NCBI GenBank assembly: GCA_038858525.1
Contig: JAWCFL010000004.1
Coordinates: 30,001-62,000, forward strand
Direction: 5' to 3'
Length of the DNA: 32,000 bases
Source of the DNA: Candidatus Jordarchaeales archaeon
Lineage (GTDB): Archaea > Asgardarchaeota > Jordiarchaeia > Jordiarchaeales > Freyrarchaeaceae
Position 1 is the first letter of the stretch. Each line of letters starts with the position of its first letter. Positions 5,479 to 12,354 of this stretch are shown piece after piece. Both the position numbers and the translations under genes were made by a program. The notes below the pieces were generated by a model. It was given only the letters and a program-made list of their open reading frames with translations. It had not been told where the DNA came from and made no database searches.

Positions 5479-5973
5479 TTGAATGAAGTAGTGGTCTCCG
5501 TGAAAATACCCCGTGACGTCCTCATGTTCCTTGAAAAAGAGGTCAGTCGAGGGAAAAGGTCAGAGTTCATAAGGCAAGCCATAATAGAAAAGCTCGAAGG
5601 TAGATGTATTAAAGTGGAAAACAGCTTCCCCAGTAACGTCATTCTCAGCAGATTAGAGGAACTCGAGAAAAGGATCATACATTTGGAGAACGCTTTATCC
5701 TCCAAGAATTCTGGTAAAGATAACGCAGCTCACCCGCTTTACCAGCTTTGCAAAGATGAAAACGAGCGAAAAATAGTCGAATATATCCTTAGTGAAGGGG
5801 GGGCCACCACTCGCGAACTGGAAAAGGTGGTCGGCCTCAAGAGGAGACAGATCCTTAACAGGGTGAGGGAACTAGCATCAAGAGCTGAGAAACAACTAGG
5901 AAAACCCATGCTTGTCTACGTGCGGGCCCGCGTAAGAGGCAAGCGGCAGGCATGGTGGCTCAACAGCCCATAA
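5479..5973 (+). CDS. Putative transcription factor: N-terminal ribbon-helix-helix, coiled coil, C-terminal winged HTH
   Basis: VVSVKIP..V...L......RSEFIRQAI (RHH); LSRLEELEKRIIHLE (coiled coil); ERKIVEYI...GGATTRELEKVVGL.RRQILNRV (wHTH). Confidence 0.75.
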   Translation: MNEVVVSVKIPRDVLMFLEKEVSRGKRSEFIRQAIIEKLEGRCIKVENSFPSNVILSRLEELEKRIIHLENALSSKNSGKDNAAHPLYQLCKDENERKIVEYILSEGGATTRELEKVVGLKRRQILNRVRELASRAEKQLGKPMLVYVRARVRGKRQAWWLNSP

Positions 5974-6015
5974 CTGGTAAATTTTATTTGGCTCTTAATT
6001 CCACTTTTAATTGGC

Positions 6016-6143
6016 GGGTCTGTGGCCTAGCCAGGATATGCTATAAACGCCTAAAGGCGCCGGCCTCCGGAGGGGTGTCTCGAGGAAAGCCGGAAAGCGA
6101 GGGTTCAAATCCTAAAATGGTGAAACTCCCTCCAGACCCGCCA
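6016..6143 (+). tRNA. tRNA-Arg(CCG) with three introns (21/22: 6039-6054; 37/38: 6071-6087; 59/60: 6110-6126); CCA encoded
   Basis: Spliced 78-nt sequence: GGGTCTG TG GCCT AGCCAGGATA AGGC G CCGGC CT CCG GA GCCGG AAAGC GAGGG TTCAAAT CCCTC CAGACCC G CCA. All four stems pair. Each intron has a BHB or relaxed BHB; 59/60 is perfect (TTCA/TGAA). Confidence 0.93.
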
Positions 6144-6197: not shown

Positions 6198-8090
6198 GTG
6201 GTGACAATAATGATCCTAACAGTTAAAGCGAAAATTGCAGATGCACTTTGGCATACGCTGAAAAAACTGGGCTTCTCAGTTTCGAGGGATGACGTATCGG
6301 AGCTACCTGAGCCCCCTGACCCTAGGCTAGGCGACATCTCCTCAGCTATTCCTCTTAAGCTTGCCCGCTCTCTGAAGCGTAAGCCGCTCGAAATAGCTCA
6401 GTCTATCGCTTTGAACTTTGAAAAGCCGGAGTTTGTTGAACGCGTCGAGGCCGCAGAGCCAGGATACGTAAATTTTTTCCTCGATAAGGTGAAGCTTGCA
6501 GGCGATGTTATAAGGACTGTTATGGAGGAAGGTGACCGGTACGGTTTCAGTAACGTAGGGGGAAAAAGAAAAGTTATTGTTGAGCATACCGCTGTCAATC
6601 CTACTAAACCATTACATATAGGTCATTTGAGGAATGCCGTCTTGGGTGACGTTGTCGCGAACCTATTAAGAGCTTGCGGCTGGAGGGTTGAAGTTCAGAA
6701 CTACATTGACGATCTGGGTCGCCAGATGGGTGTTTTAGTATGGGCTTTCCTAAACAACCTGCACCTAGAAGTTCCAAGAGAAAGAGACATGAAACTTGAC
6801 TTCTGGTATGGATTAGTATACGCCAAGGCTGCTCAGAAGCTTAAGGAGAACCCTGAACTGGAAGCTGAAGTGGATGAAGTTATGAAGCGAATGCTTAATG
6901 AAGATGAAGTGGCGCTCTTCAGCAGGAAACTCGCCGAGATGTGCGTAGAGTCAAACCTTGAAACCGCCGCTAGGGCAGGAATAACGTATGACCTGTTAGT
7001 TTGGGAGAGCGACATTTCAAAAGCCCACCTTTGGGAGCACGCCATGAATCTTCTCGAAAAATCAGAGCATTTCGTCTGGGAGACTGAAGGGGAATATAAA
7101 GGCTGCTTCGTTGCGAAGCTCAGTCACCTAGAAGAATTCAAGGACAAAAAGAACCCCGACAAGGTTCTCGTCAGATCCAATATGGTTCCAACATACGTGG
7201 CACACGACATAGCCTATCAGCTCTGGAAGTTCGGCATCCTTGAAACAGGCATGAAGTACCGCCCCTGGCATAGGCAGTTCAACGGGAAAGAACTCTGGAC
7301 AACTTCACCCATCCTCGCCACGCCCTCAAACAACTTCGCGAAAGCAGACGTCGTGATAAACGTCGTGGGGTATGAGCAAGAATACCTACAAAAAACGGTC
7401 AAAGTCTGCCTGAAGCTCCTAGGCCACTTGGAGCAAGCTGAAAACTCCATACATCTCTCATACAAACACGTTCAGCTCATGGGCGAAAAATTTTCTGGAA
7501 GAGAGGGAAACTGGGTGGGATACCACGCTGACGCCGTCATAAATCAGACCCTGCTGTGCGCATACGAGCAGGTAAGCAAAAACCTCCCTGAAGCATCAGA
7601 ACTCGAGAAGAGACAAATAGCGGAAATAGTGGCTGTGGGCGCTGTGAGATACTGGCTCACGAAGTTCAGCACAGAGCAAACAATAATATTCGACTATGGA
7701 AAAGTCACAAATTTCGACGGCGAAACCGGGCCGTACATACAATACGCGGCGGTGCGGGCGAAAAGCATACTTGAAAAAGCAGGAGAAACCCCCAGCCCGG
7801 AAATCAACCCAGAGAAACTCCTAGGTTCAAGAGAAATTGATCTCATTAAACACATAGCAAAGTTCCCTGAAGTGGTCCAAATATCAGCTAGGAACCTTAA
7901 ACCGAACATCCTAGCAGAATACACTTACCAGCTGGCAGTACGTTTCAACAAGTTCTACGAGGAATGCCCAGTTCTTACAGTCGACGATCCGGAGACCAGA
8001 AAAGCCCGCCTCGCCCTCGTACAGGCCGTTCTACAATCACTAAAGAACGCCATGAAAATACTCGGCATAGAAATACCGCCAAAAATGTAA
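6198..8090 (+). CDS. argS: Arginyl-tRNA synthetase
   Basis: NPTKPLHIGHLRNAVLGD (HIGH), GYVNF, NYIDDLGRQ, F.G.TGPYIQYA..RAKSIL and C-terminal DALR-type anticodon-binding domain. Confidence 0.97.
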   Translation: MVTIMILTVKAKIADALWHTLKKLGFSVSRDDVSELPEPPDPRLGDISSAIPLKLARSLKRKPLEIAQSIALNFEKPEFVERVEAAEPGYVNFFLDKVKLAGDVIRTVMEEGDRYGFSNVGGKRKVIVEHTAVNPTKPLHIGHLRNAVLGDVVANLLRACGWRVEVQNYIDDLGRQMGVLVWAFLNNLHLEVPRERDMKLDFWYGLVYAKAAQKLKENPELEAEVDEVMKRMLNEDEVALFSRKLAEMCVESNLETAARAGITYDLLVWESDISKAHLWEHAMNLLEKSEHFVWETEGEYKGCFVAKLSHLEEFKDKKNPDKVLVRSNMVPTYVAHDIAYQLWKFGILETGMKYRPWHRQFNGKELWTTSPILATPSNNFAKADVVINVVGYEQEYLQKTVKVCLKLLGHLEQAENSIHLSYKHVQLMGEKFSGREGNWVGYHADAVINQTLLCAYEQVSKNLPEASELEKRQIAEIVAVGAVRYWLTKFSTEQTIIFDYGKVTNFDGETGPYIQYAAVRAKSILEKAGETPSPEINPEKLLGSREIDLIKHIAKFPEVVQISARNLKPNILAEYTYQLAVRFNKFYEECPVLTVDDPETRKARLALVQAVLQSLKNAMKILGIEIPPKM

Positions 8091-8168: not shown

Positions 8169-8337
8169 GGGCCCCTCGCCCAGCTAGGATACTCAAAGCC
8201 TGACAGGGCGCCAACATTTAAGTGGCGCACGCCTGCGGTGGCTTCAGCGCAGAGAGCTGGTGGTCGCAGGGCGGAGGACTTCTCCTCCCGGCTAAGGGTT
8301 CAAATGGGGGTTCCCAGGGCAGATCCCGCGGGGCCCG
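8169..8337 (+). tRNA. tRNA-Arg(GCG) with five introns (20a/21: 8191-8204; 29/30: 8214-8230; 37/38: 8239-8254; 50/51: 8268-8295; 58/59: 8304-8322); CCA not encoded
   Basis: Spliced 75-nt sequence: GGGCCCC TC GCCC AGCTAGGATA GGGC G CCAGC CT GCG GA GCTGG TGGTC GCGGG TTCAAAT CCCGC GGGGCCC G. All stems are fully paired and each junction has a 4-bp BHB central helix. C9 is atypical. Confidence 0.9.
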
Positions 8338-12216: not shown

Positions 12217-12354
12217 TGGTGGACCCCGCGGGATTTACTCAACCTTTTTTCTGGGTTTTTGAATTCGCGGCCCTCTTCAGGGCACCCGCGGCCTCCCGGG
12301 TGCGAACCGGGTGCTCATGGCGCCACAGGCTCTACCAGGCTGAGCTAGGGGCCC
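12217..12354 (-). tRNA. tRNA-Ala(CGC) with three introns (22/23: 12331-12316; 53/54: 12284-12264; 58/59: 12258-12235); CCA encoded
   Basis: Spliced 77-nt sequence: GGGCCCC TA GCTC AGCCTGGTA GAGC A CCCGG TT CGC AC CCGGG AGGCC GCGGG TTCAAAT CCCGC GGGGTCC A CCA. It has the G3:U70 Ala identity pair and A73, and a BHB central helix at each junction. Confidence 0.93.

Follow-up and report, generated by a model that had tools for sequence, protein, structure and literature searches.

A three-intron tRNA-Arg(CCG) gene upstream of argS in a Jordarchaeia genome: real, but ordinary for its lineage

Introduction

The closest described counterparts of the gene reported here are the tRNAs of Jordiarchaeaceae, Freyrarchaeaceae, and Atabeyarchaeaceae (Valentin-Alvarado 2024, PMC11291895; Goswami et al., bioRxiv 10.64898/2026.10.13.758758), which belong to the same Asgard class as our host. 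Introns were found in 92 to 95% of the tRNA genes of three Asgard genomes, and four-intron tRNAs were tabulated for Freyarchaeia in 2024 (PMC11291895). Goswami et al. counted 2.2 introns per gene across the three families on which they focused and 2.0 in the Jordiarchaeaceae of a second panel, reported up to five introns per gene with repeated gains, found two EndA paralogues in most genomes, and left open the route by which such introns arrived (bioRxiv 10.64898/2026.10.13.758758). These Asgard sets and the present genome share short BHB introns in the D-arm, anticodon loop, and T-arm, as well as two EndA paralogues.

Two more distant systems are similar in layout. Multi-intron tRNAs of Thermoproteales (PMC4033280) also have three BHB introns, non-canonical positions, and an (alpha-beta)2 EndA with a specificity loop, although they come from a different phylum; three introns per tRNA was the maximum of that era (PMC4033280). 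The tRNA-Ile(UAU) of Cyanidioschyzon merolae, a eukaryote, contains three independent BHB introns in the D-arm, at 37/38, and in the T-loop (Soma et al. 2013, PMC3728597), and its splicing was shown by RT-PCR (PMC3728597). All three of its motifs are hBHBh', the D-arm motif is strong, and the 37/38 intron is removed last.

The Arg(CCG) ortholog of SRVP19 (PMC11291895) has two introns (22 and 29 nt), which match our own 37/38 and 59/60 calls. The gene in the genus studied here has an additional intron at 21/22.

Results

The host is an Asgard archaeon of the class Jordarchaeia with a draft genome in 63 contigs. Its ArgS was closest to that of Ca. Jordarchaeum sp. LHC_1308 among named relatives (89% identity), and further Jordarchaeia and Freyarchaeia came next. 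The tRNA-Arg(CCG) gene lies at positions 6016 to 6143 on the forward strand of the window (i.e., the whole 32,000-nt stretch of DNA analyzed). Exon 1 (6016 to 6038; tRNA positions 1 to 21, including 17a and 20a, with A20 at 6036) is followed by a 16-nt D-loop intron at 21/22 (intron 1; 6039 to 6054). Exon 2 (6055 to 6070; positions 22 to 37, with the anticodon CCG at 6067 to 6069) precedes a 17-nt intron at the canonical 37/38 site (intron 2; 6071 to 6087). Exon 3 (6088 to 6109; positions 38 to 59) is separated by a 17-nt T-loop intron at 59/60 (intron 3; 6110 to 6126) from exon 4 (6127 to 6143; positions 60 to 76, with discriminator G73 and an encoded CCA). The exons keep their collinear order over 128 nt, as opposed to a split or permuted layout, and the introns, at 16 to 17 nt with no Rfam match, are not of the group I/II or endonuclease-encoding type, which would call for a ribozyme core hundreds of bases long or an internal open reading frame.

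The argS gene (6198 to 8090; arginine--tRNA ligase; NF002447, 621 bits against a cut-off of 460) starts 54 nt 3' of the tRNA on the same strand. A TATA-like box, TTTTATTT (5982 to 5989, forward strand), is the probable promoter; it lies approximately 25 nt 5' of a short leader and was seen by eye to be kept in the orthologous loci L001 and L007. The promoter scan covered sigma-70 types only. A 164-aa open reading frame (5479 to 5973) with a weak match to the aCcr1 family of cell-cycle regulators (E value of 1e-4, below the cut-off) ends just 5' of this promoter. A 9-bp inverted repeat that would extend the acceptor stem was rejected as a feature, because its conservation in the family amounts to only 2 to 5 bp and most of it is probably 5' of the transcription start.

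Neither ARAGORN nor Rfam produced a match at this locus in the raw window. After removal of all three introns, ARAGORN called a 78-nt Arg(CCG) tRNA, and partial removals resulted in nothing or in the wrong tRNA. A home-made parser, which allowed introns anywhere, gave a bonus for BHB geometry, and was not supplied with the answer, recovered the same introns at 21/22 (16 nt), 37/38 (17 nt), and 59/60 (17 nt). The two approaches agree with the intron layout put forward in a sequence-only reading of this DNA, and the manual splice described there was reproduced: exons of 23, 16, 22, and 17 nt give a 78-nt tRNA with an encoded CCA, in which all four stems are paired. This is the sole Arg(CCG) gene found in the genome; the search for a second or intronless copy returned no exact intronless anticodon arm and two one-mismatch matches that could not be parsed as tRNAs, and the genome completeness of 92.7% leaves some room for another copy. 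CGG represents 5.8% of the Arg codons in the genome.

Each exon-intron boundary carries a strict or relaxed BHB motif. The 59/60 motif is a strict hBHBh' with a fully paired central helix (TTCA:TGAA, 4/4), a 5-bp exon helix, and a CC/GG intron helix, as had been described. The 21/22 motif is relaxed, with the central helix (AGGA:GCCT, 3/4) and 3-bp GCC/GGC exon helix also noted before. Its weak G·A pair, or unpaired position, involves A20, which we take to be a likely major ArgRS identity base, and the exon side of this helix is therefore probably fixed. A mismatch that the sequence-only reading had passed over occurs at 37/38, where the central helix (CTCC:GAGG, 3/4) places C34 opposite A between a 5-bp exon helix and a 3-bp intron helix. 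We rejected C-to-U editing at position 34 as a remedy for this C34·A mismatch, since Arg(TCG) has a gene of its own and central helices of 3/4 are common at 37/38 in this genome.

Base shuffles of introns 1, 2, and 3 matched the observed BHB with P values of 0.036, 0.019, and 0.0018, respectively. When other introns of the genome were placed at sites 1, 2, and 3, the fit was retained in 6, 27, and 6 of 108 cases, those at sites 1 and 3 mostly involving introns from the same register. Thermodynamic support was weak for introns 1 and 2: at 37°C, the isolated motif had an energy of +0.3 kcal/mol for intron 1, -6.4 kcal/mol for intron 2, and -9.1 kcal/mol for intron 3, and in ViennaRNA no pairing probability above 0.04 was obtained for the central helix of intron 1 or of intron 2. 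Because these helices are barely populated in the model, they would either be induced by the enzyme or be cut in a slightly different geometry. Their near-absence from the folding model is the main gap in the explanation; our inference is that a minor form of the RNA is what the enzyme captures at introns 1 and 2.

The junctions can slide by -1 nt (intron 1) or by +1 or +2 nt (introns 2 and 3) with the mature sequence unchanged, and intron 2 adopts the +1 register in its predicted minimum-energy fold. The D-loop intron, the anticodon intron, or both might be cut 1 to 2 nt away, at 20a/21 or 38/39, or in a bulge-helix-loop form, in the same gene and with the same mature tRNA as product. We consider this very unlikely, because only the 21/22, 37/38, and 59/60 registers provide at least three central pairs together with an exon helix, and because the orthologs keep 37/38.

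In each of the 10 genomes of the order that yielded argS, the tRNA ortholog was immediately 5' of it. Within the genus, the locus was present in three genomes, and these share one layout (21/22, 37/38, and 59/60). In the sister genus (genome G004), the introns at 21/22 and 37/38 are missing, and those present are at 51/52 and 59/60. Six Freyarchaeaceae orthologs have 37/38 and 59/60, and two outgroup genomes have 37/38 alone. Every site is therefore empty in some relative (21/22 in G004, the six Freyarchaeaceae, and both outgroups; 37/38 in G004; 59/60 in both outgroups), which is the outcome of the argS-neighborhood comparison that had been suggested. The 59/60 intron is present in 10 of 10 Jordarchaeales genomes with the gene recovered; its central helix is 4/4 in 9 of 10, and the intron bodies vary widely. 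In G006, whose ortholog was mis-split by the parser and was delimited by the motif instead, both sides have changed to a compensatory TTCG:CGAA. At 37/38, where intron lengths range from 13 to 46 nt, each of the 11 carriers retains a 4/4 or 3/4 central helix. This conservation is qualitative support, since these relatives are not independent.

In the ArgS tree, the genus and family nodes were supported. Parsimony on this tree tentatively assigns the gain of the 59/60 intron to the ancestor of the order, the direction being provisional with two outgroup genomes. By the same reasoning, the 21/22 intron appears to have been gained on the genus stem, and the 37/38 intron is probably old, having been lost in G004 and replaced in G002, where it is a different 46-nt sequence.

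The ortholog comparison also addresses whether the gene is functional. A decaying pseudogene, or a D-loop insert that is never removed, would leave CGG to tRNA-Arg(UCG) alone; the predicted BHB at intron 1 is weak, and a tRNA-Arg(TCG) gene is present that can probably read CGG by wobble. This reading is highly improbable given that all stems are intact, that exons 1 and 2 are identical in the three species of the genus while the introns have diverged, that the length of intron 1 and its GCCTA end are constant in the same species, and that the tRNA adjoins argS in all 10 recovered genomes of the order. An assembly or parsing artefact, conceivable for a gene in a 63-contig draft to which standard tools are blind, has a negligible probability and is already refuted by the same layout in the separately assembled species G002 and G003, as well as in a metagenome contig that matches G003 exactly.

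To put three introns into context, the parser census of the genome can be compared with published counts. All 42 tRNA genes found were interrupted, with a mean of 2.6 introns, and together with the ArgS identity this places the genome among the heavily interrupted Jordiarchaeia. One, two, three, four, and five introns were counted in 8, 7, 20, 6, and 1 genes, respectively. These counts are approximate, because some parses are wrong (one Asp and one Glu gene were given wrong anticodons) and because the census did not recover Tyr, Gln(TTG), Leu(CAA), or one Met-type tRNA. ARAGORN made only 11 calls, mostly wrong, versus 42 by the parser and thus misses most tRNAs of this genome.

The earlier suggestion that three introns equal the archaeal maximum is outdated, as seven genes in this genome have four or five and up to five have been published. 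The two non-canonical positions it pointed out are correct, but they do not make the gene unusual: non-canonical insertion is the rule here, with 14 introns at 59/60, the same number as at 37/38, and 5 at 21/22. A three-intron tRNA-Arg(CCG) is ordinary, since three is the commonest count in the genome and the pattern is already published. The gene is real, ordinary for its lineage, and not extreme even in its own window.

Other tRNA genes of the genome showed individual features. According to the census, tRNA-Arg(GCG) (8169 to 8337, forward strand), approximately 2 kb from the CCG gene, has five introns (20a/21, 29/30, 37/38, 50/51, and 58/59), all with 4/4 central helices. The two tRNA-Arg genes bracket argS; in three Freyarchaeaceae loci, tRNA-Arg(GCG) has three or four introns and is on the opposite strand. 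The tRNA-Arg(TCG) gene (contig C3, 63377 to 63503, reverse strand) has a 19-nt insert near positions 8 to 13 for which no good BHB was parsed (0 to 1 of 4 central pairs, likewise in three relatives). The tRNA-Ala(CGC) gene (window positions 12220 to 12354, reverse strand) has three introns (22/23, 53/54, and 58/59), and its exons and introns equal those of tRNA-Ala(TGC) on contig C3 except for the first anticodon base, which suggests that a whole intron-bearing gene was recently duplicated or gene-converted. A low-scoring (32) tRNA-like region on contig C27 (20968 to 21125, reverse strand) is possibly an interrupted tRNA-Sec.

Genes for the expected processing enzymes were also detected. The genome encodes two EndA paralogues, RtcB, and RNase P RNA, so its content includes both a broad-specificity type of EndA and an RNA ligase. 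The catalytic-type EndA is most similar to PDB 3p1z_B (E value of 1.6e-48), the Aeropyrum pernix EndA catalytic subunit. It contains a crenarchaeal-type specificity loop and a lysine equivalent to K44, which was reported to be necessary for broad specificity (PMC3488258). The second paralogue lacks the loop and the catalytic His, as would be expected of a structural subunit. One gene away from it, on the opposite strand, is a probable 2H-phosphoesterase (2'-5' RNA ligase-like; locus L051, 55 to 609, reverse strand) with two HxT motifs recognized by eye.

Discussion

We regard it as highly probable that this is a real three-intron tRNA-Arg(CCG), spliced by an (alpha-beta)2 EndA and RtcB into a 78-nt reader of CGG. 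From the gene anatomy and the enzyme genes, the following route may be proposed. The gene would be transcribed as a precursor of approximately 130 nt, in which the (alpha-beta)2 splicing endonuclease with its crenarchaeal-type loop would cut three separate BHB motifs, one strict and two relaxed. RtcB would join the exons, and RNase P would remove the leader to yield the 78-nt tRNA decoding CGG. The spliced T-loop junction had no matches in metagenome contigs, where mature tRNAs rarely assemble.

The motifs span positions 6030 to 6058, 6062 to 6091, and 6101 to 6130. They share no bases, and a splicing order forced by overlap was therefore rejected. The T-loop motif at 59/60, the most stable, may be cut first; this is a fair guess because removal in C. 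merolae followed motif stability, or position (PMC3728597). The D-stem would be unable to form while 21/22 is being cut, because the D-loop motif borrows G23-G24-C25. Unlike in C. merolae, the D-loop motif is the weakest of the three in Arg(CCG), and the order may differ accordingly between the two systems.

Where the introns came from can be addressed by similarity to introns of other tRNAs. Near-identical introns copied between tRNA types amount to 28% in Thermoproteales versus 1.5% in Asgard archaea (bioRxiv 10.64898/2026.10.13.758758). The 59/60 intron resembles that of tRNA-Cys with a P value of 0.0125, one of three tests, against shuffles in which the last six bases, which are forced, were kept fixed but the intron stem was not; in G004, the Arg(CCG) and Cys 59/60 introns both begin with ACCGTT. 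The similarity tests gave no support for another tRNA as the source of intron 1 or intron 2 (P values of 0.75 and 0.15, respectively). The 22/23 introns of the Lys, Asn, and Phe tRNAs are in the same register as Arg(CCG) 21/22, three bases after G19. A combined scenario, in which copying or gene conversion gave the 59/60 intron a common source with those of tRNA-Cys and tRNA-Arg(TCG), and the 21/22 intron was imported at the genus level from 22/23 of Lys, Asn, or Phe, is in our view rather doubtful, and the resemblance to the Cys intron weakly suggests a lead. If the scenario were true, the locus would record the arrival of Asgard tRNA introns, with the 21/22 import datable to the genus.

On its own, the gene matters little, being a further example of a published lineage-wide trait. 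Its probable small additions are a genus-level gain at 21/22, a weak G·A pair at A20, and a 59/60 intron weakly like that of tRNA-Cys. It may have modest use as an EndA substrate, because its 128 nt contain three motifs that do not overlap, one strict and two relaxed, and that apparently differ in age. Such a substrate could show the mismatch tolerance and cutting order of Asgard EndA, the substrate range of which is still to be measured biochemically (bioRxiv 10.64898/2026.10.13.758758).

A separate observation concerns the leaders. Across the genome, pairing of the tRNA leader with the discriminator and CCA is frequent: 29 of 42 genes have G at -2, and the base at -1 covaries with base 73 (Watson-Crick in 20 of 42 genes, against a permutation expectation of 13.9; P = 0.017 for this position, one of six tested). 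This pairing may bear on the choice of the RNase P site; the corresponding pair in tRNA-Arg(CCG) is C-1:G73.
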